A stretch of DNA of 64,000 nt from Candidatus Daviesbacteria bacterium (lineage in GTDB: Bacteria; Patescibacteriota; Microgenomatia; Daviesbacterales; UBA10151). The stretch spans positions 43,188 to 107,187 of the forward strand of contig JACPKM010000001.1 of assembly GCA_016187025.1 (NCBI GenBank), written 5' to 3'. Positions 4,299-45,637 of this stretch are shown here, in pieces. The translations under genes were made by a program, and so were the position numbers. The notes beneath the pieces are model-generated. The model saw only the letters and a program-made list of their open reading frames with translations. It ran no database searches and was not told where the DNA came from. Each line of letters opens with the position of its first letter. Position 1 is the stretch's first letter.

Positions 4299-5030
4299 TT
4301 ATTTAAGTAAAGAGTCAATTTGGGTTTTCATCTGTTCAAAAGGAACAGCACCGGCAACATCTACAGTTTTACCAGTTTTTGTATCAAGTAAAATATTTCC
4401 TGGCGTGCCATTTACCCCAGCTTTTGATCCAGAGGCAATATCTTTGTCTATATAGGCTTTATATTTTCCGGAATCAAGACAAGACTTAAATTTAGCTTGG
4501 TCAAGGCCAAGTTTTGTTGATGCAATAGTTGCTAAATCTGCAATTTCTGGAGTTACTTCTGGCTCATAAATTGCATCAGCCATCTTCCAGAAAGCCTCTA
4601 TACCACCTAACTCTGTTGCGCATTCTGAAGCTTCGGCATATTTTCTGGCTTTAGGGTGAATCTGTTCCAGAGGAAAATGCCTATAAACCCAGGCCACTTG
4701 GCCTTTATACTCATCAACTATTTGTTTGGCAGTTGGATGAAATCTTTTACAAAAAGGACATTCTAAATCTGAGTATTCAACAAGTAAAATTCTAGCATTT
4801 TTATTGCCTTGAATATGGTCATTATCTCTTAAAGATTCTAGCTCTGTTTTTTCGGGCTGGGCTGGAGCATTATCAGCAGCTTGGTCAGCTACTTGCTTGG
4901 TTCCACCTGCCCCAACAGGTTGTCCAACTTTAATTATCCCACCATGCAGTAAAATTGCAATTGAAATTACAAAAGAACCTAAAAGGATGGCAACAGGAAG
5001 AGTTAGGATGGAGTTTTTATCAGAATCCAT
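4299..5030 (-). CDS. DsbA-family thiol:disulfide oxidoreductase, membrane-anchored
   Basis: N-terminal TM segment; thioredoxin fold with a CPFC active site (SDLECPFCKRFHP). Confidence 0.65.
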   Translation of the reverse strand: MDSDKNSILTLPVAILLGSFVISIAILLHGGIIKVGQPVGAGGTKQVADQAADNAPAQPEKTELESLRDNDHIQGNKNARILLVEYSDLECPFCKRFHPTAKQIVDEYKGQVAWVYRHFPLEQIHPKARKYAEASECATELGGIEAFWKMADAIYEPEVTPEIADLATIASTKLGLDQAKFKSCLDSGKYKAYIDKDIASGSKAGVNGTPGNILLDTKTGKTVDVAGAVPFEQMKTQIDSLLK

Positions 5031-7541: not shown

Positions 7542-8153
7542 TTAGGGATAGTAAAATCCGATATGTCCATCCTCCCCAATATGAAATCCTAGTCTAACCT
7601 TTGGTTCATACTTGGGATGTTTCTCCAAACCACATAAAGGAGAGAGTAAACCGTCATTTCCCCATAGACTTAAAACAGCCAGCCCTTCTTTAATTTCTTT
7701 GTAAACACCGGACGATGGCTTAGGAATACTACATTCATTACAAAAGCCCAGCATACGATCTACTCTCACTGCTTCTGACCTGCATGGCGTTAATCCCCCG
7801 CTGCATTCGGAATCATAAGAAATATCCCCCTGTGGGGATACTAAAGCAATCCAACCCGGCGGCGTAATATTTTGTATATTTTCAACCTGTCCTGCTCGCC
7901 AGCAATATATTCCACCACTTGTTCTATGAAAGTGTTGGGCTTGGATAAGTGCATGAACTTGGTAAACCAAAGGATTAAAACCTACCTCACAATCTCTACA
8001 CCAACCATCTGTCCTTCTTATAGGCGATATAAAAGTGGGGCTTTCTAATCTTGCTCTTATCGGGGCCCTTGAAAGACTTGAAGATTCTTTAGGATCAAGG
8101 AGGGCTAGCTGTTTAAAAAAAATTGGAGGCTTCTCTTGATCTAACAAATTCAT
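7542..8153 (-). CDS. hypothetical Cys-rich protein, co-transcribed downstream of the DNA ligase
   Basis: 203 aa with several Cys pairs (CRDCE, CNECS, CRSE, CGLE). No family recognised. Overlaps the ligase stop by 4 nt. Confidence 0.3.
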   Translation of the reverse strand: MNLLDQEKPPIFFKQLALLDPKESSSLSRAPIRARLESPTFISPIRRTDGWCRDCEVGFNPLVYQVHALIQAQHFHRTSGGIYCWRAGQVENIQNITPPGWIALVSPQGDISYDSECSGGLTPCRSEAVRVDRMLGFCNECSIPKPSSGVYKEIKEGLAVLSLWGNDGLLSPLCGLEKHPKYEPKVRLGFHIGEDGHIGFYYP

Positions 8154-9925
8154 TTTTTGTATTGCAGATGATACATCTCGACTAACTCTTTAACAGTAGT
8201 TACATCCTCAGGTTGTTTGTCAGCTTCACGGAATTTAACTAACCTGGGAAATCTTAAGGCGTATCCAGGCCCTGAGCCTATTTTGCCAGCTGTATGGACC
8301 GGAGATTTGGTAATTTCATCTGCTAACACCTCTATCACTATTTTCGGTTCCACCCAGACGCTAGGAGTAATTAATGAATTTACCCGTGCTGGTTTCCTTT
8401 GAACTTTGAACTTTGAACTTTGAACTTTGATTTCTCTCCATTCCTCATCGGTTAATCCTGTGCCAATTCTGGAAACTGTCACAAATTCATCTTTGTCTTT
8501 ATCATAAACTCCAACCAGTAATGCCCCTGCCCCAAACTCTGCCCTTTTCCCCCTGCCAAAAATATAACCTAAAATTACGCAATCAATAGTATCCTTAAGC
8601 TCACCTGCCGAGTGCCTCTTTAATTTCACCCAGTTAAAATTCCTGGCTCCTGCCTCATATTTTGAATCAGGTCTTTTGACAACCACTCCTTCCAAACCTT
8701 TGGTTAAGGCATCATTAAAAAGCTCATTTAACCTTTCTTCGTTGTCTACCACCTCTCCGGGCTGCGGAATTAATATTTCATCCCCCTGCAAAACCTTTTT
8801 TAGCTGTTCCATTCTTTCAATTAGCTCCAAGTCCATTAAGGGTTTTCCATCTAGATACATCACATCAAACACAAAAGCCTTTAAAGGCAGGCTCTTTGCC
8901 ATTTCTTCTATGCCATACTTTCTTCTTCTTTTTGTGGTTTCCTGAAAAGGTAAAAATTCTTCTGATTGGGGGTTAAAAGCTAAGGCTTCTGAGTCTAAAA
9001 TGGCTGTTTTGGCTTTAATCTGTTTAATTGTTCCTTCCACAATCTCCGGAAACATGGGAGTAGTTTCCTCTAAGTTTCTGGAAAAAAGCCTGACATTATT
9101 ACCGTCTTTGTGAATTTGCACTCGGAATCCATCATATTTATACTGAACATGAGCATTACCTTCAAACTTTTGCAGGACAGTCTTGGCATCCGGTAATCTT
9201 TCTGCCAACTGGGAGCGGATCGGCCGGCCCACTGTCACATCAAGCTTTTGCACCGCCTCCAACCCCCCACTCCATAAGGTTTCGCCGATCAATCCTAGAT
9301 CAGAAACTTTATTATATGCTCCTTCTAAAAGTTTCCTTTTGGACCTGTCTCCCAGTTTTAGTTTGGCAAAAGCATCCAGAACCGTGGGGTCCCCTATTCC
9401 AAGCCTCGAAACACCAAGTGGAATTCTTACTAAATGCTTTGCAGATATTGGATCAACTTTTTTTAATATATCTGCTAAGGTAGCGACCTTTTTTTCTACT
9501 GTTCCTTCACCGGAAGTTTTAGCAATCCCTGCCAAAGTTTCAAAAATTTCTTTTGTTTCCAATTTAAAAGTTTTAATTTTAAATTTTAAATTCAGCTGTT
9601 GGGCCACTAAACCCATATCTCCTAATTTGCCTAAAAGATTTAATACTTCCTCCTTATCAGCTTTATAAGCTCGACCAACAGCTGCTGCTACCAATTTTTC
9701 ACTCATCCCCATCTCAACAGGCTCGTAAAACGGGGCTACTCTTCCCTGAAGCAGATAACTCACCTTTGCTACCTCATGTTTTTCTACCTTAGAAAAAAGT
9801 TCTGAGAGGATGTCTATCAGGGAGAGTCTCGAGGAAGTAGTTTCTAACCTTTCAAAATAGTCCGCTAACTGCTTAAAAATCATCTCTTTTGGATTGTAGA
9901 TTAAACAAATTAATTTGACAAGCAA
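8150..9925 (-). CDS. lig: ATP-dependent DNA ligase (three-domain Lig1/archaeal type)
   Basis: Adenylation motif I KYDGFRVQIHK; 591 aa with DBD, NTase and OB domain order. Confidence 0.85.
   Translation of the reverse strand: MLVKLICLIYNPKEMIFKQLADYFERLETTSSRLSLIDILSELFSKVEKHEVAKVSYLLQGRVAPFYEPVEMGMSEKLVAAAVGRAYKADKEEVLNLLGKLGDMGLVAQQLNLKFKIKTFKLETKEIFETLAGIAKTSGEGTVEKKVATLADILKKVDPISAKHLVRIPLGVSRLGIGDPTVLDAFAKLKLGDRSKRKLLEGAYNKVSDLGLIGETLWSGGLEAVQKLDVTVGRPIRSQLAERLPDAKTVLQKFEGNAHVQYKYDGFRVQIHKDGNNVRLFSRNLEETTPMFPEIVEGTIKQIKAKTAILDSEALAFNPQSEEFLPFQETTKRRRKYGIEEMAKSLPLKAFVFDVMYLDGKPLMDLELIERMEQLKKVLQGDEILIPQPGEVVDNEERLNELFNDALTKGLEGVVVKRPDSKYEAGARNFNWVKLKRHSAGELKDTIDCVILGYIFGRGKRAEFGAGALLVGVYDKDKDEFVTVSRIGTGLTDEEWREIKVQSSKFKVQRKPARVNSLITPSVWVEPKIVIEVLADEITKSPVHTAGKIGSGPGYALRFPRLVKFREADKQPEDVTTVKELVEMYHLQYKK
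8398..8430. repeat. heptanucleotide tandem repeat (TTTGAAC) x 4.7 inside the ligase CDS
   Basis: tttgaactttgaactttgaactttgaactttga; three heptamers make 21 nt, so the protein carries SSKFKVQ repeats. Confidence 0.8.
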
Positions 9926-16576: not shown

Positions 16577-16633
16577 TTGCAATTACTTTATAACAAAACC
16601 AGTAATATATTTAAACATGAAATCAAGGGTGAT

Positions 16634-16736
16634 AATGAACTACCCTGCAGCAGAGCTGCGAGGTATCGCAAGCGAAAGTTCTTGTTACCAAGTTGTAACC
16701 GCGCAGTAAACTGCTCGGTATTATGTAACAATAAAG
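16634..16736. ncRNA. conserved structured RNA-like element, copy 1 (unassigned family)
   Basis: AATGAACTACCCTGCAGC...GTAACAATAAAG. It shares its ends, order and helices with 37196-37361. Compensatory changes are seen (UCGC/GCGA versus UCGU/ACGA; GUUAC/GUAAC versus GUUAC/GUGAC). Confidence 0.35.
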
Positions 16737-34702: not shown

Positions 34703-35858
34703 AAGCTAGATCCACCATTGTTTTTGCTGTAGCTGTCATTGGGGTTTCCCGCCCATATATATGAAAATCAAAACCTTCTTTTTCTCCAATCTCTTTTAAA
34801 GCCTCAAAGGCTTCCTTATCCCTTGGCCCTCCCCTCCTGATTACAATTGGATAATTTGGTTTAGGACTCAGTTCCCTTAAACCTTCTACAAATCCCATCA
34901 GGGTTTCAAAAATATCCGTAAAGTTGGCTGTCCCCCCTACAAACCAGCAGCCCTTTAAGTTAGGTTTAGAAAGTACTATTTTTGTTAATCTTTCTAGTTT
35001 CTCTCTGGGAGGATTTCCTGAGTGTTCAGTATAGTTTGCGCTCTTGCCGCCATATGCTACAAGCGCATCCATATTCACAATAGATCCTCCCCCTCCTGCT
35101 GCAATCACTGCAATATCTCCCTCCAAATCCCAATAAACAGAGCCTGCAGTACCACGGTGATCCCCTTCATCTATTTTCCGGGCTTCAATTTCTGCCTCAG
35201 TTGGAGCCCTGCCAAACAAATTCCTTTCAGGAAATTTAATCTCGCGTCTAAAATCAGCATCATCATCCAAAATTATTTTGGCGTCCAACGCCATAATATA
35301 ATTTTGCCCTGAGCGAGCGGAGCGAGTCGAAGGGTTCTTAGCGACTACCAACGGATTAATTTCTGCCAGTTCACAGTCATATTTGGTAAAAACTTCCCAA
35401 AGTTTTTTTGCTGTGCCTTTCAACTCCTCAGGAACATTTTCTCCTAAATATCCCTTTAAGATATCGACCTGGAAAGTTTTCACCTCTTTACCCTCTACTC
35501 CTGTACCTCCTTCACCAAAATTCAAAACCGGTCCTCTTGATTCTGTGGAATAAGAGAATGACAAGTAGTATTCCCTATCATAATCTACCATCTCCTCTAC
35601 TAAAACCTTATCTACTTTTTCTCCATTAACAATCCTGCCAAACAGTTTTTCTACTTCCCCCTTCACGCTTTCCCCTTCACCCTTAACTGTAACTATTCCA
35701 CCTACATCTGCACGCTTACCGGACAAAACCTGGACTTTTAAAACACAGGGTCCTTTAATAGTAACTTCTTCATCCGCCAAAGTTACTAGCTGTGACTGAG
35801 GAACATTTATTCCACAATTTTTAAAAAGTTGTTTTCCTTCAAATTCGTATAAGATCAC
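34683..35858 (-). CDS. succinyl-CoA synthetase beta-like / citryl-CoA synthetase large subunit-like (ATP-grasp)
   Basis: N-terminus MILYEFEGKQLFKNCGINVP resembles SucC/AclB ATP-grasp proteins. It carries the GEGESVKGE motif. Confidence 0.75.
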   Translation of the reverse strand: MILYEFEGKQLFKNCGINVPQSQLVTLADEEVTIKGPCVLKVQVLSGKRADVGGIVTVKGEGESVKGEVEKLFGRIVNGEKVDKVLVEEMVDYDREYYLSFSYSTESRGPVLNFGEGGTGVEGKEVKTFQVDILKGYLGENVPEELKGTAKKLWEVFTKYDCELAEINPLVVAKNPSTRSARSGQNYIMALDAKIILDDDADFRREIKFPERNLFGRAPTEAEIEARKIDEGDHRGTAGSVYWDLEGDIAVIAAGGGGSIVNMDALVAYGGKSANYTEHSGNPPREKLERLTKIVLSKPNLKGCWFVGGTANFTDIFETLMGFVEGLRELSPKPNYPIVIRRGGPRDKEAFEALKEIGEKEGFDFHIYGRETPMTATAKTMVDLAYGNTSY

Positions 35859-36022: not shown

Positions 36023-36052
36023 TTATCAGTGCGGGTAAATTTTAACATAATT

Positions 36053-36553
36053 TAGGCTGCATATCTAAGGCCATCAATCCACCCTCTAATCTTAGTTAAT
36101 AATTCGCTACTTCTTCGAACCCTTATCCTCAGGACCCCATAGTATTTTTCTGGATTTTCATATTTTTTCAACCAAATAGATTTGTGATAAAAAGGTTTTT
36201 CAAACTGTTCTTTTGGAATTTTTGTGGTTTTCGACCAAAAATCTTCAATTTGTTCTTTACGATACTCATGTGATTCATTAAATTCAGCTCTTAAAATTAA
36301 TTCTTCCCGTTTTATATCAAAAGACCTTGCGAGTCACTTAATAAAAAATTTCACCATCTGGGGATCAGAGTTGCAGAAACCTACTCTACCCTCCTTCAAA
36401 CTCTTAAACCCTTCTGCCCAATAAAGAGATAAACCTGTCAAAAATAGTTCTTTCTCAGTCAGACGAGCTATTTCCAACTTTGCCTTTTTAAAGACAGTAT
36501 TGGTTCTAGTAACTTTCTCCAGATGCTTCTGCTTCGCTAATTTCCGGAGGTGT
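36053..36553 (-). pseudogene. degraded ORF (frameshifted, no start codon) between two tRNA genes
   Basis: Minus-strand conceptual translation ...LEIARLTEKELFLTGLSLYWAEGFKSLKEGRVGFCNSDPQMVKFFIK* then, after a 1-nt shift, LARSFDIKREELILRAEFNESHEYRKEQIEDFW...GWIDGLRYAA*. Possibly a mobile-element (homing-endonuclease-like) ORF remnant. Confidence 0.3.
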
Positions 36554-36748
36554 TTTATATTTACTTTCCTATCTTTTTAAGACTTCTGCCTTTTTTTTCT
36601 TTGCCTTACTGCTTCTTCGTATTCTATTTGCTTTCTCTTCATTGATTAATAGATATATTTCTATTGTTCATCTATTTAATAGAAGATGTCAATCGTGTTT
36701 GACATCTCTTGGTTAGAAGAATAAAATACAAGAGTTCTTTTACATAAC

Positions 36749-37038
36749 GCGGGGAAGTGTAACGGCTGCACGCGAGGCTCGATTTTGGGCTCTCTCATAA
36801 GCAATTATGCTAGATAACCTGGCTCATAACGGTGGAAACTTCTTCAAAAGTAATACCGTGGGAAGTTTCGATAATATCGGAACCCCGTAACGACTAATAT
36901 TCCAGCTACCGGATAACTCGGAACTAAATTGGAATTATACGCCGGGCTCCTCTGATTAGGGGATGATGGTATAGTCTATTCTTTATTTAACTAAAGAGCA
37001 TAATCTCGCAGTAGTAGGTTCGACTCCTACCCCCGCAA
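36749..37038 (+). tRNA. tRNA(CAU) split by a putative group I intron of about 218 nt in the anticodon loop (exons 36749-36780 and 36999-37038)
   Basis: Exon 1 is CGCGGGG-AA-GTGT-AACGGCT-GCAC-G-CGAGG-CT. Exon 2 is CATAA-TCTCG-CAGTA-GTAGG-TTCGACT-CCTAC-CCCCGCA-A. Joined, they form a canonical cloverleaf with C1-A72 as in initiator tRNA. The 5' exon ends in U and the intron ends in G; the intron contains ACGACUAA, which is P7-like. Confidence 0.5.
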
Positions 37039-37195
37039 CACGGTTGTATTTTGTGCATATAAAGCATGCAGTTGGGCTACTATATAGCCCTTTTCGTTAG
37101 GTTCGAACGCCTTTCCTATTATTGGCGCACCAGCCTTCATGTTTTTAACAATTTTAATGTGAGGATGAGACTGTAAACCCAATTTTTTACCCTTT

Positions 37196-37361
37196 AATGA
37201 ACTACCCCGCAGCAAGTCTTCGACTCCGAGGCTCAGACTCGAGGAGCTGACGGGGTATCGTAAACGAAAGTTCTTGTTACACTATTTTGTGACCGCGCAG
37301 TAAGTCTGCGATCCTGAGTCCTCAGACCGAAGGACTGCTCGGTATTTATGTAACAATAAAG
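37196..37361. ncRNA. conserved structured RNA-like element, copy 2 (expanded helices)
   Basis: Same termini (AATGAACTACCC ... GTAACAATAAAG) and helix order as 16634-16736, with stem-loop insertions and compensatory substitutions. Confidence 0.35.
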
Positions 37362-37543
37362 GTAAGCGACCGGATATGACTAAACTATTACCCGACCTGC
37401 TTTATTCAGATATGCGGCTAGAAGGAGAGAAGATTACCAGAAAACAAGCCAGGGATTTATTTAAATAACTACGGACTTAGGAGGTACTTGCCAAATCCGT
37501 TATAATTCGTTATAATCTGTTATAGTTAGATTATTATAAAACT

Positions 37544-38605
37544 ATGGTTAAAAATCGCAAGTTTGAAAAGAGGATAACTCAACTTCCTCCTGAAATATTT
37601 CTTAAAATAGCTCAGATCGATGAGTTAAAAGGTCAATGGACTGCAGGAGCTAATCTAAACCCCCAACTGTTAGGCAGGCTTAAAAGGTCAGTTTTAATTA
37701 CCTCTACTGGTGCTTCTACAAGAATTGAGGGCTCAAGACTTACTGACGACGACGTTGACAAATTAATGCAAGGTATTGCTATCCAAAAGTTTGCTGATAG
37801 GGATAAACAGGAAGTTCAAGGCTATTTTGAACTCCTCAAAATAATTTTTGATTCCTGGGAACATATTATATTTAGTGAAAATTCCATTAAGCACCTACAT
37901 CAGGAGCTCTTAAAGTATGTGGAAAAGGACCAGGATCACAGAGGTAAATATAAATCACAAGATAATAAGGTTGAAATGGTAGATGAGCAAGGTAGAAGAA
38001 TTGGAGTTATCTTTGACACTACTCCGGCCTACTTAACCCCTAAACAGATGCAGGAGTTAGTTGAATGGACTAAATATGCTTTGGAGGCTAAATTGTCTCA
38101 TCCCCTCATTATCGTAGGCAACTTTTTAGTAGAATACTTAAATATTCACCCATTTAAAGACGGAAATGGTAGACTTTCCAGAATTCTAACTAACCTGCTT
38201 TTACTTCAGTCGGGTTATCTATACATGCCTTATATATCTCACGAGAAGTTAGTTGAGGATCAAAAACCACAATACTATCTTGCATTAAGAAAAAGCCAAA
38301 GAACTTTCAAAAAAGGTGCTGGAGATATAGCTCCCTGGCTTGAGTTCTTTCTAGATATAATTTTAGCCCAATCGAAAGAAGCAATAAGTTTAATGGCTGG
38401 AGAGAATGTAGAGGATATTTTATCTAATAAACAAATTGCAGTCTGGCAATACCTACAAAAGAAAGCTGAATCTACACCTAAGGAAATAGCAAAGGAAACT
38501 AAAGTCGCTTATGCAACTGTGCGCCAAACACTCTCAAAACTACTGGATCTAAAGAAAATTGAGAGAGTCGGAATGGGCAGAAGTTCCCGTTATAGGAAAA
38601 TCTAA
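37544..38605 (+). CDS. Fic-family protein with a C-terminal wHTH
   Basis: Fic motif HPFKDGNGRLSR. Confidence 0.8.
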   Translation: MVKNRKFEKRITQLPPEIFLKIAQIDELKGQWTAGANLNPQLLGRLKRSVLITSTGASTRIEGSRLTDDDVDKLMQGIAIQKFADRDKQEVQGYFELLKIIFDSWEHIIFSENSIKHLHQELLKYVEKDQDHRGKYKSQDNKVEMVDEQGRRIGVIFDTTPAYLTPKQMQELVEWTKYALEAKLSHPLIIVGNFLVEYLNIHPFKDGNGRLSRILTNLLLLQSGYLYMPYISHEKLVEDQKPQYYLALRKSQRTFKKGAGDIAPWLEFFLDIILAQSKEAISLMAGENVEDILSNKQIAVWQYLQKKAESTPKEIAKETKVAYATVRQTLSKLLDLKKIERVGMGRSSRYRKI

Positions 38606-38675
38606 GGTTTTAAAACCCTTTTTTAATGTGTGTTAAGTTGTTAACTTTTTGAAGCTAAATTAGATAGGTAAAAGA

Positions 38676-39269
38676 CTAAAGAATTCTCTTGGGTAGATGG
38701 TATATGTATACAGCACTAGAAAAACAGAGTATCGCCATACTAACAAATAAGGTATTGAAGCCAAATTTTGTAACAATAAATCCACCTATCACTGCTCCAA
38801 TGGCAATTGAAAAGTAGTTCATGGCCTCCCAAGCACCCCACTCTGTAGCAGTTTTTCTTCCATCTAAATGTTCAGAGTAGAGAGCATCAAAAGGAGGATT
38901 ATAAATTGCCTCGCCAAAACCTATCAGTACCTGTACAAGCAAAAGAAACCAGATCGAGCTGACTTGAGTATAAAGTAAGAAACCTATTCCCATGATTGCG
39001 TATCCTAGAACAACAATTAGTTTTTTCTGCTCTAACCTATCAGAGTATTTTCCAGATAGCAGTACTGTTATTCCTGCCACTAATGCGAATGTAGCACCAG
39101 CAAAGCTTGCATCAAGTAAATCTCCACCCACCTTCTCAATAAAAAGAGCATAAATTGGCCCCAGCATGGCTCCAGCTATAAGAATCATAGCGTTAGTAGC
39201 TAAAAGAATTCTAAGAGCCTTATTAAAAAACATCCTCTTGATGTGAAATAGGGAAGAGACCCGTTCCAT
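38676..39269 (-). CDS. MFS-transporter-like membrane protein (half-size, possibly truncated)
   Basis: 197 aa with six predicted TM segments resembling an MFS C-terminal half. Confidence 0.4.
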   Translation of the reverse strand: MERVSSLFHIKRMFFNKALRILLATNAMILIAGAMLGPIYALFIEKVGGDLLDASFAGATFALVAGITVLLSGKYSDRLEQKKLIVVLGYAIMGIGFLLYTQVSSIWFLLLVQVLIGFGEAIYNPPFDALYSEHLDGRKTATEWGAWEAMNYFSIAIGAVIGGFIVTKFGFNTLFVSMAILCFSSAVYIYHLPKRIL

Positions 39270-39492
39270 AAAAAATTACCTATATTAACGATATTGCATA
39301 TAATCCGCATTATCAAGCTATAGATATGCTCAAATACATCATTTATGCCGTATAAAGTTGTGTCTCACCAGCCTATCCTCTGTTTAGGATGGCTGTAGAG
39401 GCAATCTTACTGGTAAGCCGATTGATGAATAAGTATATGGTTAACTCAAGGCCTAAGCACCAAAGTGAAGTCAAAGACTTCCTACTCCGTAG

Positions 39493-39558
39493 TAAAAAAT
39501 TCTGCAATTAAATCAACGATTTAATTGGGTGTATTATGTCTTGCAGTCCCCGCAACAC
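39493..39558. repeat. 66-bp direct repeat, copy 1 (att-like)
   Basis: taaaaaattctgcaattaaatcaacgatttaattgggtgtattatgtcttgcagtccccgcaacaca; identical to 42058-42123. It contains a 10-bp hairpin CAATTAAATC/GATTTAATTG and the core CCCCGCAACAC shared with the tRNA(CAU) 3' end. Confidence 0.8.
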
Positions 39559-39612
39559 AGCTAGATTAGGTTGTTATAATAGCCTAATCTCTTAATTAGT
39601 AAATAGGCTAAA

Positions 39613-40383
39613 TTATCCAAAAACAAATTCTTGCCCAAAATCTTTTACTAATTCCGATTTAGATTCTTCATAAATTGATTTTAACCCTCTTTCCAAGTAA
39701 ATTTGTCTTTGTGTGCGAGAATAATCATTCCAATTACCTTCAATTCTGGCAACCTCTGCTTCATATTTCTTAAGTACAGGTATTCCTCCAAGACCTAACC
39801 AACTAGCAATACCATGTTCAGCATATTTTCCATTTCCACCTAACCAACCATAAGGGGTTTTAGCAACGTCAAATCTCGCAGTAATTCTCGGTCTCACCTC
39901 TATATCTGTACCGCTACCAATTCTAATGGTGCGATTCGGGAATTTAGCAATTGCCCCGTCTGTTAAAGATGGATTTAATTCCTGTTCTACTATGCCTGCA
40001 ATTTGCATCAGATTGTCATGGCTTCCAATATAAACTGTTGCTCCAGATTCCCTATTGCCGTAAAAGTATGTTCCTACCATTGATTCAACTTTAAAATACA
40101 ATCCGTTTACATATAAAAACTGTGCAACATCTCTTTCTTTACCTTTCTCAAAGGCAATATGAATCTTCCAACCACGGGATGAGAACTGAGAGAAAGGACT
40201 TTCATCCTCCGTTGTTTGAAAGTGACCTCTAGGCCCCCATCGTTCTTGCCAGGCTTTTTCAAAGGCTTGCCTGCGATTATCTTTATCCTTATTAAAAATT
40301 GTTGATTGTAATAAAGTATCAGGAGGATTTAGACCTGCTTCATTTCTTTCTAAAGAATCATCCACATGTTGATTATATCTCAA
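39613..40383 (-). CDS. hypothetical protein inside the repeat-bounded segment
   Basis: 256 aa; no family recognised. Confidence 0.3.
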   Translation of the reverse strand: MRYNQHVDDSLERNEAGLNPPDTLLQSTIFNKDKDNRRQAFEKAWQERWGPRGHFQTTEDESPFSQFSSRGWKIHIAFEKGKERDVAQFLYVNGLYFKVESMVGTYFYGNRESGATVYIGSHDNLMQIAGIVEQELNPSLTDGAIAKFPNRTIRIGSGTDIEVRPRITARFDVAKTPYGWLGGNGKYAEHGIASWLGLGGIPVLKKYEAEVARIEGNWNDYSRTQRQIYLERGLKSIYEESKSELVKDFGQEFVFG

Positions 40384-40448
40384 AAATTGGAATAAAAAGT
40401 TCTAACTTCATTCCAACCACTTCCTCTAAACAATGGTATAATGGCCAC

Positions 40449-40709
40449 ATGTTAAAATCTCAAAAAGTTTCGGAATATGAATTACCAATTAAAGTAGAAC
40501 CACAAAAAGAGGGCGGTTTTGTGGTTACTTCTCCAGTTTGGGCAGATTGCTACGCTCAAGGCGACAGTGTAGATGAAGCTATATTAGAAATTACTGCCGT
40601 AGCTCAATCTCTAATTGAATTATATAAAGAAGAAGGTAAACATATCCCCCTTAAGTTACAAAAAGAGGTTGACAACCTCACCTCGGTTCCAGTTATAGTA
40701 GCTACATGA
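40449..40709 (+). CDS. hicB: HicB-family antitoxin
   Basis: UPF0150/HicB-like fold sequence, overlapping hicA by 4 nt. The ORF-track start at 40299 is probably too long. Confidence 0.6.
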   Translation: MLKSQKVSEYELPIKVEPQKEGGFVVTSPVWADCYAQGDSVDEAILEITAVAQSLIELYKEEGKHIPLKLQKEVDNLTSVPVIVAT

Positions 40710-40918
40710 AACCTCTAAGCTATCGGATAGTTATCAAAAAAGCACGCAAAGCAGGTTTTGTTTTCCGTAGAAATACTGGCGGTACCCATGAAATCTGGTG
40801 GAATGAAGATAAAAAGAGAACCTGTGTGATACCTCATCATCATGAGATTAAACCAGGTACACTGAAGAGTATTATTAGGCAGATGGATGTAAGTGAGGAT
40901 AATTTTAGAAAATTATAA
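40706..40918 (+). CDS. hicA: HicA-family mRNA interferase toxin
   Basis: 70 aa; LSYRIVIKKARKAGFVFRRNTGGTHEIW is typical of HicA/YcfA. Confidence 0.75.
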   Translation: MKPLSYRIVIKKARKAGFVFRRNTGGTHEIWWNEDKKRTCVIPHHHEIKPGTLKSIIRQMDVSEDNFRKL

Positions 40919-41106
40919 AATAGGTTCTAATAGCCTCCCGCCCCCGCAAAACGAAAGTTTCCTTAAATTTCTCCATTGGTGATGATTAGATTATAATAAG
41001 AGCTATAATCACTTTTGCTAGTATTGAAACAGCCAGACAAATTATTAAAGACCTATATCCTGAAGCCAAAAACGTCAGGTTTATTGAACATGGTTATGAT
41101 AACTTA

Positions 41107-41925
41107 GTGGGACTTGTTGACAACAAATACGCATTAAAGTTTCCTAGAAATCAATATGCCTACCTTAGAGATCAGTATGAAGAGCAAGTTTTATTAGATC
41201 TAAAATCGCTTAATCAGTTATTAATTCCCAAAATATTAGGCAAAGGTAATAACCCACCTTATTTTATTGCTAGTTTTGTTCCTGGTAAGCATTTAAGTGC
41301 AGATGAAATTAGACAATTATCGACAGAACAACAAGAAGATTTAGCTGAAAAAATCGCCAGATTTGCATACGCAATGCATTCAATACTACCAGTAGATCAG
41401 GCTATAGAGCACCGTAGTAAATTAAAACTTGATTCTCTGAAAGGACAACCTTGGGTGATATATTTTGAAGAATCTTTAAAAAAAGTGGCTTTTCCTAATC
41501 CCCGGCAAGATAGGCTAGCTAAAGAATATTATAAAAGGTGGAAATCTTTACATTACGATACCCCTGAGGTAGTTGTACACGATGATATACATAATGAGAA
41601 CTTAATGTTTGAGGGGACTAATTTAATTGGTGTAGTTGATTTTGGAGACACGGATATTGGTCATCCTGAACAGGAATTTAGACAGATGTACCGAATAAAT
41701 GAGACAATTTTAAATTTAGTGATTAAAAATTATGAGCAACTTTCGAATCTCAAACTAAATAAAGAAGCCATTATACTTTTCGCTATACTCCAAGAGCTAG
41801 CAGTATACTCTGAGATGCTAACAAGTACTAAAAAAGATCGCCCCTCATTTTATAGGGCCACAAAAAACCTTCAAAAATGGTTACCCGAGGGTAATTGGGA
41901 AAATGATACTACCCCTTTTTTATAG
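41107..41925 (+). CDS. aminoglycoside/small-molecule phosphotransferase (APH) family kinase
   Basis: Brenner motif VVHDDIHNENLMF and the D-F-G region VDFGDTDIGHPEQEF. The in-frame upstream sequence looks like a genuine APH N-terminus but lacks a canonical start. Confidence 0.7.
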   Translation: MGLVDNKYALKFPRNQYAYLRDQYEEQVLLDLKSLNQLLIPKILGKGNNPPYFIASFVPGKHLSADEIRQLSTEQQEDLAEKIARFAYAMHSILPVDQAIEHRSKLKLDSLKGQPWVIYFEESLKKVAFPNPRQDRLAKEYYKRWKSLHYDTPEVVVHDDIHNENLMFEGTNLIGVVDFGDTDIGHPEQEFRQMYRINETILNLVIKNYEQLSNLKLNKEAIILFAILQELAVYSEMLTSTKKDRPSFYRATKNLQKWLPEGNWENDTTPFL

Positions 41926-42057
41926 TGTTGAATTTGTTGACTTTTGTGCCTAAAAGTTCTTTTTTATATGTGGTGTCCGATTGTCCGAATAGCAGATTTA
42001 AAAAACAGGTTTTAAATATAGGGTAAACTGCATGATTTGTAGCTATTAGGCACTAAA

Positions 42058-42123
42058 TAAAAAATTCTGCAATTAAATCAACGATTTAATTGGGTGTATT
42101 ATGTCTTGCAGTCCCCGCAACAC
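42058..42123. repeat. 66-bp direct repeat, copy 2 (att-like)
   Basis: Identical to 39493-39558. Confidence 0.8.
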
Positions 42124-42124
42124 A

Positions 42125-42478
42125 CTAACGGAAAAAAACTTTCCACCAGCCTAACCAATTAGGCAGTTTTTCTTCTAGATTTTTTCTACTTTCCCCTAAA
42201 ACCTGCTGAATCTTTTCTTCCGGAATAATTACAACAGTCTCCCCCTTTTTCCCCAAACCTAGTTTATTTCTGGCTTGTTCTTCTATAAACTCAGAAGATC
42301 GGACCTGTTGTAACCTTTTTTTAAGTTCTTTGTTTTTAACTTCAAGTTTGTATAACTCTTCTGCTGCCTGACTTAACCGATCAGATGACTTGGTAGCATC
42401 AAAAAGCTGCGCAATAAGGTTTGCAATGATAATTCCGACAATTACTATAACCAGTACTAAACCTATTTTTTTTGTCAT
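42125..42478 (-). CDS. FtsB/DivIC-like septum formation initiator
   Basis: N-terminal TM segment followed by a coiled coil (AEELYKLEVKNKELKKRLQQV). Confidence 0.5.
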   Translation of the reverse strand: MTKKIGLVLVIVIVGIIIANLIAQLFDATKSSDRLSQAAEELYKLEVKNKELKKRLQQVRSSEFIEEQARNKLGLGKKGETVVIIPEEKIQQVLGESRKNLEEKLPNWLGWWKVFFR

Positions 42479-42496: not shown

Positions 42497-43402
42497 TTGA
42501 CAAAGATGGCCTATAAATTTACAATATACGCTATGATCAACTTAAAAGATGCTCATCAGCAATTTATAGGCCACTTAAAAGGCAGGTCCCGTGCCACTGC
42601 TACTATCATAGCTTATAGCAAGGATATTGATCAACTGATTTCTGACCTTGAATCCTCAGGTAAGCAAAACCCACAAGATGTGAGCTTAGAAGATTTACAA
42701 ACCTTTATGGAAAAATTGTCCAAAGAAAACTACACCCCCAAATCTATTTCAAGAAAAACAAATTCTACCAAAACCTTTTTTAAGTTTTTAAAATCCTCAG
42801 CTCTCATCACAGAAGATCCGGCATCAGACTTGGAGCATCCTAAGTTTGAAAATAAACCACCAAGGATACTATCAAAGCTAGAATACCGAGCCTTAAGGGA
42901 TGCAGCCAGAGCAGATACCAGAATGTTGGCTGTTATAGAACTACTACTGCAAACCGGTATTAGAATTGGCGAGCTGGCCAAACTTCGTTTGGAGGATCTA
43001 AGCCTGGAAGATTCTTCTGCCACTTTGCATGTTCCCCCATTTGAGGGAACCAATGAAAGAACTATTCCTTTAAATAAACCTGCTGTCGAGGCTTTACAAA
43101 AATACTTGGAAGTAAGGTCTAAAACCCAATCACATTCACTCTTTGTTACCAAAACCGGCAGACCTCTACTTATAAGAAATATCAGAACTGCAATTGACAG
43201 ATATTTTAAAATTGCAGGGATCAAAGGGGCAAAGGTAAATGATTTAAGACACACTTGGGTTGCTCATCAGCTTCAATCAGGTACCTCTTTACTGGTTGTT
43301 TCCAAGCTTGCTGGACATAAAAGACTATCAACCACTGAAAGATATCTTCAATTTCTCCAAAATCATTCCGGCGAGGGAAAAGTTAAACTCGAGGAACTAT
43401 AA
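42497..43402 (+). CDS. tyrosine site-specific recombinase (XerC/XerD-like integrase)
   Basis: C-terminal catalytic region LRHTWVAHQLQSG...HKRLSTTERYL (R-H-R-Y), 301 aa. Confidence 0.8.
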   Translation: MTKMAYKFTIYAMINLKDAHQQFIGHLKGRSRATATIIAYSKDIDQLISDLESSGKQNPQDVSLEDLQTFMEKLSKENYTPKSISRKTNSTKTFFKFLKSSALITEDPASDLEHPKFENKPPRILSKLEYRALRDAARADTRMLAVIELLLQTGIRIGELAKLRLEDLSLEDSSATLHVPPFEGTNERTIPLNKPAVEALQKYLEVRSKTQSHSLFVTKTGRPLLIRNIRTAIDRYFKIAGIKGAKVNDLRHTWVAHQLQSGTSLLVVSKLAGHKRLSTTERYLQFLQNHSGEGKVKLEEL

Positions 43403-43555
43403 AAAATTAAACATCCGGTGAACCAGATGATATCTTGCACAGACTGGATGAGTTTTTCAAATTATTCCTATCTGACGGTCTAAACTCCGAATACGCCTAT
43501 TTATTTGGGCTAAAAGATGCATAATGAACAAGTTCTTGCTGTGCAATAAAGTACA

Positions 43556-44101
43556 TCAACTTCTTTTAACTTTAGCAAACTTTAGAATTTGGTCTTTCTT
43601 CAAAATCAGATAAGAGGAGCAGTTTTTCTGAAGGGCACGACTGATGAAATTTTCAAAGCCAACATAAATCACTTTCTTATTCTCATCTTTTGCTGTTTGA
43701 ATAGCTGGTAATAAATCTGTATCTGATGAGATAACAAAACATTTATCGTATTCATTTTTGATGGCTCCACGTACTTGATCTACTGCAATCTGAACGTCCA
43801 CACCTTTTTCATGAAATTTACCATCGGACATAAGAAGATAGCCAAGTTTTATTTTTATACCTTGTTTTCTTAAGTTTAAGAATAATGATTGCTGATTTGC
43901 ATAAAGAGTCTCCGACTTTTTATTTCCCGGATATTTCCTAATCTCTCCAACATAATAGATGATGTCGTTGGATGCAACTTTTGTTAGTGATTGAGCCAAC
44001 CCCACATAATCAAAGTTTGTTAAATGTACTTGAGATAAAATTTTCTTAACCTTTTTATAGAAGTTGCTACCATCAAATTGAACTAATATTTTCTTTTTCA
44101 C
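43556..44101 (-). CDS. NYN-domain (LabA-like) protein
   Basis: ILVQFDGSNFY...GVDVQIAVD...VISSDTDLLPA, the NYN/PIN-like Asp pattern. Confidence 0.7.
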   Translation of the reverse strand: MKKKILVQFDGSNFYKKVKKILSQVHLTNFDYVGLAQSLTKVASNDIIYYVGEIRKYPGNKKSETLYANQQSLFLNLRKQGIKIKLGYLLMSDGKFHEKGVDVQIAVDQVRGAIKNEYDKCFVISSDTDLLPAIQTAKDENKKVIYVGFENFISRALQKNCSSYLILKKDQILKFAKVKRS

Positions 44102-44136
44102 CTCTTTATCTTAGGTTATCTGAGAATTTTAAGCAA

Positions 44137-44172
44137 GAAAAACCCCCGGGTCGTAAAGAACCGGGGGGAGTT
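44137..44172 (-). terminator. intrinsic terminator (minus strand)
   Basis: CUCCCCCCGG-UUCUUUACGA-CCCGGGGG followed by UUUUUCUUGC. Confidence 0.5.
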
Positions 44173-44436
44173 AGCAAATCAAGGTATTTCCTTTTGGAAA
44201 TACAACATCATATTATCAAAAATAATGGCAAAATGCAATAACTAAATCGATCCTTGTGGCTCGCCTCGCTTTGCGGTCGAAGCGGGCCTAGATGAATCAT
44301 CAAATCTGATGTCAACGCGAGCTCCCTAACTGTAAGGCTTGTCCCGCCGAAGCCATCAGGCGAAGGAGGATACTTTTACCCCGTCTCGCCAAAGGCGGAC
44401 GAGGCTCGCCTCTGGCGGCACAAGGATCATTCGGTA
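44173..44436 (-). ncRNA. GC-rich structured RNA (unassigned; 6S-like or riboswitch-like leader are candidates)
   Basis: An extended -10 promoter (TGATATAAT, minus strand at 44451-44443) and a downstream terminator bound a transcript of about 290 nt. A 10-bp closing helix GAUCCUUGUG/CACAAGGAUC encloses about 175 nt of GC-rich hairpins, in an otherwise AT-rich genome. Confidence 0.45.
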
Positions 44437-44477
44437 CACTCATTATATCAAGAATTTGATATACTTTTCTTACATAA

Positions 44478-45167
44478 ATGAATAATCACCAACTGCAACA
44501 ACAAAAGGTAATAAATAAAATTGAAGAGCAAATAAAGGCTAATTCTTTGAATTTTAGTACTGTTTCGGCTGTCGAAGACTATGAAAGTGATCCTCGTATT
44601 TGTTTAACAAGCGTTCATTTACCCAATGAAGAACTTAAAGGACAAATTCGGGAATTATTAACTGAGCCACTACGTAAAATTGCACCGGATTTTTACTACT
44701 ACACCTCTGACTCCCTGCATATGACTATAAAGAATGTACGCGTCATCAATAATCCCCCTCATTTCGAGGAAGAGGATGTTAATCAAGCGAGGAAAGTATT
44801 TTCGCAGATCATTCCTCAACACAAACAATTTAATGTCTATTTTTACAGATTATTACTCTTTCCAAATAACCTTGCTTTACTTGGAACCTCTGACATGGAA
44901 CTTGATAGTATTATTCTTGATTTAGATGTAGCCCTTAATAAGGCAGGAATTCCTGATGACAAAATTTATGCAAACTCAAAATACTTTTTTAGCAACATAA
45001 CATTAGCAAGATTCAATACGCCACCTTCAAAGGAATTCAAGCAAAAAGTTAAGGAGTTATCAGACTCTATTAAGTTTAAACCTTATACGATTAATTCTGT
45101 TACTCTCTTGAGCTGTAATGCAGTTTTTAAGAATCGTAAAACAATAGAGACTTGGTACTTGAAATAG
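44478..45167 (+). CDS. 2H phosphoesterase superfamily protein (LigT-like)
   Basis: A first H-x-T-x motif (SLHMTIKN) and a degenerate second motif (NITLARF); size and spacing fit LigT-like proteins. Confidence 0.4.
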   Translation: MNNHQLQQQKVINKIEEQIKANSLNFSTVSAVEDYESDPRICLTSVHLPNEELKGQIRELLTEPLRKIAPDFYYYTSDSLHMTIKNVRVINNPPHFEEEDVNQARKVFSQIIPQHKQFNVYFYRLLLFPNNLALLGTSDMELDSIILDLDVALNKAGIPDDKIYANSKYFFSNITLARFNTPPSKEFKQKVKELSDSIKFKPYTINSVTLLSCNAVFKNRKTIETWYLK

Positions 45168-45273
45168 TACTCCTAACATATCACTTTCCCAAATCGTCGA
45201 AAACTTAAAGGATAATTGCAGCACCTGATTAGTTAAAACTTACTTATTTCTGATAGTTAGGTGGTGATTACAA

Positions 45274-45438
45274 ATGTTGCCTTTAGATGTAATTAAAAAA
45301 TATTATCCTGATTTGTCAGATGAAGATTTGAAGAAAATACAAGTGTTTGTTTATCGATTGGGTTGTGGGATAATGCAACATTTTTATGGACAGGATTGGG
45401 ATAAGGATATTGAGGACTTGGATTTGGAAAACGAATAA
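45274..45438 (+). CDS. small protein (54 aa) with a strong SD
   Basis: AGGTGGTGA lies 7 nt upstream of the ATG; MLPLDVIKKYYPDLSDEDLKKIQVFVYRLGCGIMQHFYGQDWDKDIEDLDLENE. It is below the ORF-track length cutoff. Confidence 0.3.
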   Translation: MLPLDVIKKYYPDLSDEDLKKIQVFVYRLGCGIMQHFYGQDWDKDIEDLDLENE

Positions 45439-45558
45439 TGTTGTTCTGACAATCCAAACATGAGTTCGAATCTCGCTCGGTTTCTTGGCTATAGGGTTGA
45501 TTTCGAGGAGTTTTCCACAATTCCTTGAGGCTAAAAATTGTAGTTCGATAAAAATTAT

Positions 45559-45637
45559 TTGGTGAGCGGACCAGGACTCGAACCTGGAACCGGATGGATA
45601 TAAGCCATCTGCTCTGCCATTGAGCTATCCGCCCTTG
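45559..45637 (-). tRNA. tRNA-Ile (anticodon TAT/UAU) with an encoded CCA
   Basis: GGGCGGA-TA-GCTC-AATGGCA-GAGC-A-GATGG-CTTATAT-CCATC-CGGTT-CCAGG-TTCGAGT-CCTGG-TCCGCTC-A-CCA. Confidence 0.8.

Follow-up and report, generated by a model that had tools for sequence, protein, structure and literature searches.

How did ~5.08 kb of DNA come to separate an initiator tRNA gene from a divIC/ftsB-like gene in a Daviesbacteria chromosome, and which enzyme put it there? The window, which is the whole 64-kb stretch of DNA that was analysed, can be compared with relatives in which the two genes are neighbors. In at least five Daviesbacteria (L004, L014, L016, L033, and L050), the core sequence at the tRNA terminus and the stop codon of divIC are 0-10 nt apart. 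One of these empty sites belongs to the closest relative, L004, whose Xer protein is 84% identical. Joining position 37041 of the window to 42124 recreates the empty-site layout, and the flank 3' of the second repeat copy is collinear with all five empty sites. Because the tRNA core of these relatives directly adjoins divIC, 37042-42124 is an insertion, in other words, DNA added at the tRNA 3' end. The first-pass annotation had proposed such an insertion, made of several units with att-like copies of the tRNA end between them, and the comparison of relatives for empty sites ending at the tRNA bears it out. The end of divIC lies one base past the second repeat, and the gene is syntenic in 56 of 59 relatives. 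The same insertion pattern with different cargo recurs in many Daviesbacteria. At the tRNA-divIC locus of the 59 relatives, no tblastn match to the island genes was found at E <= 1e-5; the sole match was a 27%-identical Fic gene elsewhere in L011. Nucleotide similarity between the window and its relatives is limited to the tRNA, the recombinase remnant described below, the junction motifs, and the divIC flank. A point against the island reading is base composition, because the G+C content of 0.366 between tRNA and divIC differs little from the 0.380 of the window.

The target gene is split by a ~219-nt group I intron (Rfam Intron_gpI, 26 bits, E 2.5e-4, under the gathering score of 50), and the split tRNA was called by neither ARAGORN nor the Rfam tRNA model. 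Despite these misses, the tRNA is genuine. Its joined exons are collinear with the intron-less and intron-containing tRNA-fMet genes of relatives (CGCGGGG...CCCCGCA-A) and carry the C1xA72 initiator signature. An intron-containing tRNA-fMet is present in 16 of 46 classifiable relatives.

Table 1. Features of the tRNA-divIC locus, in window coordinates. LSR, large serine recombinase.
Feature	Position	Strand	Remarks
Initiator tRNA(CAU) gene, attB	36748-37038	+	exon 1 36748-36779; group I intron 36780-36998; exon 2 36999-37038
LSR C-terminal stump (~57 codons)	37030-37200	-	ends ...NTTVLRG*; stretch doubles as P' arm
Core copy 0 (attL)	37031-37041	+	CCCCGCAACAC: acceptor 3' strand, discriminator base, and 3 further nt
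Two G+C-rich REP-like hairpins	37204-37345	.	at break point of LSR gene; related hairpins at 16633-16722
Fic/DOC protein with C-terminal winged HTH (SoFic-like), unit 1	37544-38605	+	Pfam Fic 1.4e-14; PADLOC SoFic 3.8e-42
MFS transporter, N-terminal half, unit 1	38676-39269	-	Pfam MFS_1 1.4e-26; profile positions 3-173 of 347
67-bp repeat copy 1, right end of unit 1	39493-39559	+	compared with L070
Left end of unit 2 (P' arm, H type)	39559-39590	+	palindrome AGATTAGGTTGTTATAATAGCCTAATCT at 39563-39590
256-aa protein, unit 2	39613-40383	-	no Pfam family
hicB-hicA toxin-antitoxin, unit 2	40449-40918	+	HicB 40449-40709, HicB_lk_antitox 3.1e-6; HicA 40706-40918, HicA_toxin 1.7e-16
Right end of unit 2	40923-40952	+	canonical P arm GGTTCTAATAGCCTCCCGC, then mutated core CCCCGCAAAAC
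APH-family kinase frame, unit 3	40990-41925	+	Pfam APH 2.6e-22
67-bp repeat copy 2 (attR)	42058-42124	+	built as copy 1; core 42113-42123, then chromosomal flank
divIC/ftsB-like core gene	42125-42478	-	Pfam DivIC 3.2e-12; chromosomal right flank (B' side), outside island
Xer-type tyrosine recombinase	42497/42533-43402	+	Pfam Phage_integrase and SAM_1; core gene

Which enzyme inserted the island? The first-pass annotation looked to the neighboring tyrosine recombinase and did not notice the signature at the junction itself, the C-terminal stump of a large serine recombinase (LSR). The stump matches the LSR of L035 (phmmer, E 7.6e-13), residues 511-578 of P0010 (tblastn, 79% identity, E 5e-28), and the equivalent stump of L048 (blastn, 89% identity). 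Read on the opposite strand, the core spells the last four codons of the stump (VLRG). Among the top 120 LSR homologues, 104 have an xLR(G/S/D/E) C-terminus, and the homologues' ends often extend into the reverse complement of the tRNA T arm. The L035 protein, which has Resolvase, Recombinase, and Zn-ribbon domains, has 562 homologues. No intact LSR gene is present within the 64-kb window, but intact relatives in other Microgenomates genomes occupy the same position, adjoining tRNA-fMet. Four intact elements (L035, L063, L064, and L065; 5.1-6.8 kb) run in the order tRNA-core-LSR ... P arm-core. The far ends of intact elements bear GGTTCTAAYAGCC...C-CCCCGCAA, a motif that the window has at 40923-40952. 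Thus, the island was most likely inserted by an LSR of which only a stump is left, and not by the tyrosine recombinase.

Copies of the tRNA terminus divide the island. The 11-mer CCCCGCAACAC occurs exactly at 37031, 39548, and 42113, and a one-mismatch copy is found at 40942-40952. All four lie on the plus strand; shuffled sequences are expected to hold 0.34 copies, and four or more occurred in 0 of 100 shuffles. A perfect direct repeat, present only twice in 64 kb with a spacing of 2565, terminates each time in this tRNA core. The first-pass annotation had rightly seen the repeats and the 11 tRNA-terminal nucleotides common to them, but the repeat is 67 bp long and not 66. The degenerate core that it placed at 40931-40946 exists as well, a few bases away, and proves to be part of something more: it belongs to a typical right-end arm of the element family (GGTTCTAATAGCCTCCCGC plus core), since 40923-40952 is 94% identical to the attR of the intact L035 element and 93% identical to L028. 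Repeat copy 1 consists of an outer P arm (TAAAAAATTCT), a ~31-nt palindromic insertion, an inner P arm (ATGTCTTGCAGT), and the core (39548-39558). In L070, a 36-nt perfect repeat consisting of P arm and core brackets a Fic-bearing unit adjoining divIC. The 67-bp repeat of the window is best read, from this comparison, as the 36-nt block of L070 with the ~31-nt palindrome inserted. The 10-bp hairpin described earlier (CAATTAAATC/GATTTAATTG, at 39505-39527 and 42070-42092) is therefore present but is not a conserved recombinase-binding arm, because the near-twin site of L070 does without it.

The units differ in their ends and in their cargo. Unit 1 carries the Fic gene and an MFS gene that is probably truncated. 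The palindromic H-type left end of unit 2 has blastn matches to L012, L072, and L076; ends of this type lie directly 3' of the tRNA core in L009, L010, L012, and L022 and 3' of internal cores in L069 and L072-L077. In this unit, the 256-aa protein has a predicted fold with a weak likeness to phospho-Ser/Thr lyase domains, and the P arm begins 4 nt past the hicA stop codon. The same order, hicBA followed by the P arm, is found in L025 and L037. The P arms and the H-type P' arms can be read as placing the inverted motifs AACAGCCT and AGGCTGTT on either side of the core. Unit 3 has no recognizable P' arm. Its kinase frame is open from 40990, and the first ATG, GTG, or TTG codon is the GTG at 41107, in keeping with the earlier remark that the kinase lacks an N-terminal start after the degenerate core. 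Internal P arm-core-P' junctions were found in 9 metagenome loci. Across 40 loci, 24 extra cores lie downstream of the tRNA and co-oriented with it, compared with an expectation of ~10 for the full 897 kb when both strands are counted. In total, there are 36 units, with a median length of 825 bp.

Taken together, these observations favor, with a probability of about 0.8, a degenerate tandem array of LSR-type integrative units in the 3' end of the initiator tRNA gene. According to this model, the LSR would join an attP, consisting of a P arm, CCCCGCAAC, and a P' arm that overlaps the 3' end of its own gene, with the tRNA terminus. The crossover would fall inside CCCCGCAAC and would therefore rebuild an intact tRNA. 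Later units would arrive at the regenerated sites, leaving attL (37031), two attP-like internal junctions (39548 and 40942), and attR (42113). Unit 1 (37042-39558) would have a P' end and a P end that belong to the same attP type, unit 2 (39559-40952) would be a cassette without an integrase, palindromic at its left end and canonical at its right, and unit 3 (40953-42124) would have lost its left end. Canonical phage LSRs recombine only attP with attB, so tandem accretion needs a relaxed site choice, which is described for the Ccr recombinases of SCC elements. The array now looks immobile in cis: 90% of the LSR gene is deleted, one core is mutated, and the ~31-nt palindrome splits the P arm of both repeats. 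Neither a circular or excised form of the array nor polymorphism within a population was found; two scans of viral contigs and one exact search of metagenomes for the window repeat came back empty.

Did each unit arrive by its own integration? It is possible, if rather doubtful, that there were fewer integrations than units. The island would then be a single composite LSR element whose second 67-bp copy arose locally, by unequal crossing-over, homologous recombination, or re-integration of an excised circle, and 40942 would be an older scar in the cargo. No mismatch separates the two copies over their 67 bp, and both have the derived ~31-nt P-arm insertion; local duplication accounts for the identity at least as well as separate arrivals would. 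The missing P' arm of unit 3 and the equally perfect duplication of P arm and core in L070 point the same way. However, 67 bp of identity is too short to date a duplication, and the end pair of unit 2, a palindromic P' arm and a canonical P arm, is complete, as it is on independent cassettes in L010, L012, L069, L072, and L077. This completeness argues that unit 2 once moved as a unit.

It is very unlikely that the adjacent tyrosine recombinase (42533-43402) integrated the segments, whether as an island integrase, through Xer-exploiting elements (IMEX), or by capturing integron-like cassettes. A distance of 0.4 kb separates the gene from the last repeat, arrays of short, hairpin-bearing cassettes with toxin-antitoxin genes have an integron-like look, and the protein matches the NCBIfam XerA/'integron integrase' model at 155 bits. 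Nevertheless, it stays under the cut-off for all Xer and integron models (best matches XerC, XerD, and XerA; integron integrase 71 versus 265 bits). The first-pass annotation correctly located it outside the last repeat, but core-gene synteny rules against its role as the island integrase: a syntenic orthologue occurs in 59 of 59 relatives (48-84% identical, 57 of them at 62-84%) and is kept whether the island is present or the site is empty. Furthermore, where the tRNA is inverted, arrays stay at its 3' end, away from xer, and it is the LSR whose stump marks the junction and whose attP arms match the unit ends. The neighboring Xer is a bystander.

The tandem layout is hardly a product of metagenome assembly, for example a free 2565-bp circle (unk256-hicBA-APH) stitched in at the repeat. 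The order of segments across the identical repeats comes from the assembly. The independent Logan contigs, which stem from several runs, are all interrupted at the repeats, and L078 (2557 bp) covers exactly the stretch from one repeat to the next; against this, similar arrays occur in many independent assemblies, and the 67-bp repeat can be bridged by reads because it is shorter than usual read lengths. The idea that the repeats are generic REP-like sequences, which the first-pass annotation named as its refuting case, or terminators, and are unrelated to integration, is very unlikely to hold: a T run follows the hairpin on the minus strand, two minus-strand genes (unk256 and divIC) each have a copy just beyond their 3' ends, the minus-strand fold has z = -3.6, and REP-like hairpins do occur in the genome, but both copies end in the tRNA core, their non-hairpin part matches the P arm and core of other genomes, a simple terminator scan did not call the hairpin, and the extra cores of relatives cluster 3' of tRNA-fMet.

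How does the proposed LSR array compare with known systems? SCC and SCCmec elements of staphylococci use Ccr large serine recombinases and an attB in the 3' end of rlmH. They insert at the very 3' end of a conserved gene, which stays functional, and build up as tandem units that are each flanked by short direct repeats and in some cases lack a recombinase (pseudo-SCC). The Daviesbacteria array likewise combines an LSR at the 3' end of a conserved gene with repeat-bounded tandem units, some lacking a recombinase. It differs in its tRNA target, in an LSR 3' end that overlaps the core, in its CPR host, and in being known from sequence alone; its LSR is also only distantly related (best NCBIfam matches of the L035 protein XisF, 88 bits, CcrB, 71 bits, and CcrA, all far under cut-off). 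With phage serine integrases such as phiC31, Bxb1, and A118, the family has in common the Resolvase, Recombinase, and zinc-ribbon architecture and att sites of ~40-60 bp with imperfect dyad symmetry about a short crossover. Unlike those phages, the intact elements of 5-7 kb showed no phage genes, no directionality factor was identified, and tandem and integrase-less units imply sites beyond strict attP x attB. Integron arrays resemble it in lying beside a fixed platform and in their short units (median 825 bp here) of 1-3 genes, often toxin-antitoxin pairs, each closed by a conserved recombination site. In contrast to integrons, IntI is absent, the sites look like halves of an LSR attP and not like attC, the platform is a tRNA, and gene orientation is mixed. 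The tRNA islands of tyrosine integrases (Islander/TIGER) run from the tRNA gene to a displaced copy of the tRNA 3' terminus, and their tandem arrays restore the core at each integration and carry defense and toxin-antitoxin cargo, as here; the present array differs in its serine recombinase and its short common core (9-11 nt). t(m)RNA targets account for 44.5% of Y-Int elements versus 14 of 297 S-Int elements, and their use by S-Int was stated to be previously unreported (PMC7192596). The locus is thus an island of a known kind with an uncommon pairing of integrase and target, found here in CPR bacteria.

The island is an insertion at the 3' end of the tRNA-fMet gene. Five relatives (the loci L004, which is the closest, L014, L016, L033 and L050) have just 0-10 nt between the tRNA-fMet core and the divIC stop, and joining window position 37041 to 42124 recreates this empty-site layout. 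The uninterrupted attB of these relatives bears out the proposal of the first-pass annotation that DNA had entered at the tRNA end. The core is an 11-mer, CCCCGCAACAC, whose first copy terminates the tRNA-fMet gene. It occurs four times in the window, always on the + strand, against 0.34 expected, and the four cores delimit three units, none of which contains an intact recombinase. The perfect direct repeats, described earlier as 66 bp long, are real and measure 67 bp. Nucleotide-level relatives exist only for the tRNA and the ~160 nt that follow it, and for the junction motifs and divIC flank. The Fic, MFS, 256-aa protein, hicBA and APH genes are absent from 59 related loci, save for a 27%-identical Fic elsewhere in L011. 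The G+C profile of the segment, suggested as a check, was uninformative.

Features of the island and of intact elements at the same tRNA junction (window coordinates)
Feature	Position or sequence	Strand	Remarks
tRNA-fMet exon 1	36748-36779		begins CGCGGGG
tRNA-fMet insert	36780-36998		~219 nt
tRNA-fMet exon 2	36999-37038		finishes CCCCGCA-A
LSR stump	37030-37200	-	ends ...HALYAQNTTVLRG
attL core and attR core	37031 and 42113	+	exact; island ends, core common with tRNA-fMet target
Two REP-like hairpins	37204-37345		G+C-rich; LSR break-off
Perfect direct repeat	39493-39559 and 42058-42124		67 bp
Internal core	39548	+	exact
Left end of unit 2, palindrome type	39559-39590	+	resembles left ends of integrase-less units in relatives
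Right-end P arm and core	40923-40952	+	94% identical to attR of L035; core has C-to-A change
Internal core	40942	+	one mismatch
Xer	42533-43402	+	tyrosine recombinase
attL of intact elements	tRNA + core + LSR 3' end (P' arm, CACrGTGGTATT...)		L035, L063-L065
attR of intact elements	arm (a)GGTTCTAACAGnnTCCCnC then CCCCGCAA		L035, L063-L065

Which recombinase was responsible? The minus strand beside the tRNA encodes a homologue of the last ~57 residues of a large serine recombinase (LSR; phmmer E 7.6e-13), which is 79% identical (E 5e-28) to the LSR homologue P0010; a Pfam domain search with these last ~57 codons gave no match. The gene stops at the two REP-like hairpins, and besides this stump and Xer no serine or tyrosine recombinase is detectable in the 64-kb window. 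Related copies of the hairpins lie near 16.6 kb (16633-16722). Full-length, three-domain LSRs are found at the same tRNA junction in four relatives (L035, L063, L064 and L065), in elements of 5.1-6.8 kb with the same two ends. In L035 a 6.06-kb insert separates tRNA-fMet from a distal core, and its tRNA-proximal protein (590 aa) is a large serine recombinase because it has Resolvase, Recombinase and zinc-ribbon domains. Its C-terminus, ...NTTVLRG, is encoded across the core (GTG TTG CGG GG, the reverse complement of CCCCGCAACAC). The attL and attR with a short core common to the target, together with uninterrupted attB in relatives, are as expected of an LSR element.

The LSR family counts 562 homologues, spread over Daviesbacteria, Gottesmanbacteria, Levybacteria and other Microgenomates. 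Among the best 120 of them, 104 have an xLR(G/S/D/E) C-terminus; 35 of these stop there, and 69 run on and translate the reverse complement of the tRNA T arm. In 9 of the same 120 the reading frame reaches the CGCGGGG 5' end of the tRNA. This recombinase family, hundreds strong, appears tied to a single universal and highly conserved target, the terminal 9-11 nt of the initiator tRNA gene, which the LSR's own stop region overlaps. The relative L048 holds an LSR-remnant element whose stump is 89% identical to that of the window; 58 nt of it (7830-7887) are 86% identical to the intergenic stretch after Fic (38604-38661), and the two are related elements with different cargo. Another contig, L068, has an LSR 51% identical and two P'-core-P junctions (1-170 and 6197-6370, 6196 nt apart) with arms of the same type around a different central sequence (TGTCGGCACAAAC). 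A circular element was dropped as an explanation in favour of these tandem junctions, and L068 either has another target or represents a tandem or concatemeric form.

The att sequences show how the units are built. All attL/attR pairs have the block CCCCGCAAC in common, which would place the crossover within CCCCGCAAC and leave the tRNA rebuilt. The P' (left-end) arm at the window tRNA, GGTTGTATTTTGTGCAT, matches the P-core-P' junction of the relative L070 at 15/17 positions, and the P (right-end) arm of the 67-bp repeat matches the same junction at 13/17 in the 17 nt beside the core; thus, unit 1 (37042-39558) bears both ends of one attP type. A reading of the repeat as the tRNA 3' half minus the T arm (TCTTGCAGT in the repeat, TCTCGCAGT in the tRNA) was dropped, because a P-arm variant, ..ATGTCCTGCAGT, seen in L070, L018 and L004 is a better account of the TCTTGCAGT stretch. 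What had been taken for a mere degenerate core in the middle of the island is the right-end arm of an LSR element. At the left end of unit 2, AGGCTGTT would be the inverted AACAGCCT of the right-end arm, roughly symmetric about GCA|AC, a layout that is the expected look of an LSR attP.

L070 also bears on the hairpin of the repeats. It has a 36-nt perfect repeat, TAAAAATTTCTAATGTCCTGCAGTCCCCGCAACACG (3118-3153 and 4478-4513), enclosing a 1360-nt unit next to divIC in which an LSR-type P' remnant is accompanied by a Fic gene and one small ORF. The window repeat equals this 36-nt block plus ~31 inserted nt (GCAATTAAATCAACGATTTAATTGGGTGTAT) that include the hairpin, and perfect identity starts at the same TAAAAA left boundary in both. 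With a gap, TAAAAAATTCT plus TATGTCTTGCAGT matches L070 at 21/24 positions, against 14/24 for the ungapped version, which the MAFFT alignment picked. The hairpin, earlier proposed as a recombinase-binding arm, is missing from the L070 block, and neither that role nor a conserved structure is supported; it is best taken as a derived insertion common to both 67-bp copies, which points to a recent common origin of the copies, and it may mean that the att sites of the window are crippled. A role as a minus-strand terminator is plausible, though the hairpin is A+T-rich and was not called in a terminator scan.

On the most economical view, LSR-mediated integration at the tRNA-fMet terminus was followed by the stacking of further units and then by decay. 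The decay would comprise the LSR deletion, the mutation of the core at 40942, truncation of the MFS gene and loss of the unit 3 left end along with the APH start codon. The window array is a fossil with a deleted integrase, and the biology of the window alone is modest. Canonical LSRs do not act on attL or attR, so an array implies either relaxed site choice, as in SCC, or local duplication. Local duplication fits the 67-bp copies just as well as successive arrivals do, both copies being identical, hairpin insertion included. Excised or circular forms were sought among viral contigs with an LSR scan and a P-arm pattern scan, and neither these nor a circular contig was found; metagenome contigs, scanned for exact copies of the window repeat, also gave none. 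Exact-protein matches to window genes come only from short same-strain contigs that all break at the repeats, and the segment order therefore rests on the MAG assembly.

A disfavoured explanation is that the units are Xer-exploiting elements (IMEX) moved by the host Xer at dif-like sites. The evidence against it is indirect. The arrays follow the orientation of the tRNA and not that of xer: in loci with a tRNA inverted relative to divIC, the extra cores are on its 3' side and so away from xer. In addition, the junction carries an LSR stump. The adjacent tyrosine recombinase, which the first-pass annotation had noted just outside the last repeat, was rejected as the integrase. It is a Xer orthologue, syntenic in all 59 relatives, and the sole Phage_integrase-type gene in the window; it lies outside the repeats, whereas a tyrosine-integrase tRNA island would have such a gene inside, next to one end. 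A genome-collection scan with Xer gave 59 loci, nearly all from Candidatus Daviesbacteria (CPR, Microgenomates), and orthologues occur in 59/59 (57 at 62-84% identity, 56 with divIC alongside). The backbone common to all loci is citE-sucD-sucC, elongator tRNA-Met, a variable stretch, tRNA-fMet, divIC (-), xer (+), tRNA-Ile(UAU) and a VirD4/TraD-like gene, which makes the recombinase a syntenic core gene. Its conserved single orthologue, fixed synteny and two-domain architecture (Phage_int_SAM_1 and Phage_integrase) are those of a chromosomal Xer; the nearest NCBIfam models are XerC, XerD and XerA, each scoring below its equivalog cut-off. The nearest "integrase" beside a tRNA island can therefore be a housekeeping Xer, a warning for annotation. 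A second variable gap runs from xer to the tRNA-Ile(UAU) 3' end (43403-45560). It contains a small ORF besides a LigT-like gene and an NYN-domain gene (PADLOC HEC-09, 6e-13), and a search of it for direct repeats of the tRNA-Ile 3' end found none. In L007 and similar relatives xer, tRNA-Ile and the VirD4-like gene are just 26-30 nt apart.

The target gene is split by an insert and is called by neither ARAGORN nor the Rfam tRNA model. With the exons joined, it aligns with the intron-less initiator tRNAs of 30 relatives, and among 46 classifiable Daviesbacteria loci an intron is present at the same place in 16 and absent in 30. The insert sits between anticodon-loop positions 33 and 34; the gene escapes standard tRNA finders. 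Its borders fit a group I intron (exon 1 ends ...GGCT, with U last; the intron ends ...GAG, with G last), and it scores 26 bits with Intron_gpI against a gathering score of 50 (E 2.5e-4, 1-kb search). It is a below-threshold candidate group I intron whose splicing would yield a normal tRNA. The ~0.7 kb between tRNA-Met and tRNA-fMet (36023-36747) has just short broken minus-strand ORFs and gave zero matches in a Pfam search; a LAGLIDADG pseudogene guessed at 36052-36480 was dropped for want of Pfam support.

Pfam confirms the cargo calls of the island. The Fic protein matches the SoFic defence model at 3.8e-42. A 30-codon ORF at 37376-37468 (..SDMRLEGEKIT..) resembles by eye the N-terminal S..IEG motif of the Fic downstream of L070's LSR remnant, and probably derives from an earlier Fic gene of which it is a fragment. 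The 256-aa protein has an identical counterpart in the Ca. Daviesbacteria hypothetical protein HYW42_00425; its lyase-like character is a lead rather than an assignment. A two-component Ser/Thr dehydratase with the APH kinase was rejected because homologues occur in unrelated contexts with no kinase neighbour. In another lineage (contigs L083-L087, 5804-6460) homologues adjoin a Y1_Tnp (IS200/RAYT-type) gene between two aminoacyl-tRNA synthetase genes.

Arrays also occur in the relatives. A tRNA copy is recognisable in 40 loci, and these contain 24 additional cores located downstream of the tRNA and on its strand, against a chance expectation of ~10 on both strands of all 897 kb. The 36 units between successive cores have a median length of 825 bp (most are 0.1-1.4 kb and lack an LSR) and carry, among others, VapBC/PIN, HicBA, DUF3800, GIY-YIG, GNAT, RelE/HigA-like and APH genes. 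L035 has a full Pycsar pair, PycC (1.7e-47) and PycTM (1.7e-30), within its intact 6-kb element (7622-9094). Integrase-less units have a second type of left end, CAy and a few nt followed by a palindrome such as TTAGGCTGTTGCAACAGCCTAA, seen after the tRNA in L009, L010, L012 and L022 and after internal cores in L069 and L072-L077. P-core-P' junctions are seen exclusively inside arrays.

Gene-less units of 100-210 nt lie directly 3' of tRNA-fMet in nine relatives (L020, L024, L027, L031, L037, L043, L045, L047 and L048). They consist of a terminator hairpin and a structured segment ending in ATCC, 3 nt and CCCCGCAAC. The 3 nt co-vary with the host tRNA T stem in 9 genomes, and a consensus fold of five has compensatory changes in 11/21 pairs; these units may represent a regenerated attB or a small RNA, or combine the two. 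A G+C-rich REP-like hairpin of a different type, like CACTTCGACTCGCTTCGCTCGCTCAGTG, which abuts the core in ~12 relatives, occurs in frame inside the sucC-like gene of the window (35309-35332). P arm-core copies inverted relative to the tRNA were seen in L004 (6735, -), L017 (8935, +) and L034 (3056, -), and tRNA-fMet and tRNA-Ile flip orientation between species (tRNA-fMet strand, L004-L062) in an otherwise fixed gene order, which together suggests recombinase-mediated inversions.

A broader reading, to which we give roughly a 30% chance, is that the initiator-tRNA 3' end in Microgenomates is a cassette platform run by one LSR family, with a resident or visiting LSR acting in trans to capture, stack, invert and exchange small integrase-less cassettes. 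The proposed cassettes are 0.35-1.4 kb long; their left end is a conserved palindrome, their right end is of the GGTTCTAAY..-core type, and their cargo is toxin-antitoxin, Fic, APH, PIN and similar genes. If true, the platform would amount to an integron analogue built on a serine recombinase, and defence genes would move in these reduced genomes largely by this route, with the window as a decayed example. The comparison defines candidate attB/attP pairs for an uncultivated lineage and shows where small-genome CPR bacteria keep variable defence and toxin-antitoxin genes.

The island is of the familiar island-at-tRNA design with an uncommon class of integrase. Serine integrases are generally held to use tRNA genes rarely, if ever. 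In one survey 44.5% of tyrosine-integrase elements targeted t(m)RNA genes, against 14/297 serine-integrase elements, a use called previously unreported and in need of proof, and tandem arrays were a known result of core-restoring integration (PMC7192596). A literature search of limited reach turned up no account of LSR elements that occupy tRNA-fMet in CPR bacteria. The closest functional analogue is the SCC composite island, which likewise has tandem units split by core repeats, recombinase-less units included, as in the window and its relatives. Unlike in SCC, the target is tRNA-fMet and not rlmH, and the L035 LSR scores only 71 bits against CcrB (cut-off 900) and 59 against CcrA (cut-off 700). 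The island also differs from an integron: the window Xer scores 71 bits (cut-off 265) and 33 bits (cut-off 435) with integron-integrase models, and the junctions, unlike attC, each consist of a P arm and core and are related to the tRNA 3' end.
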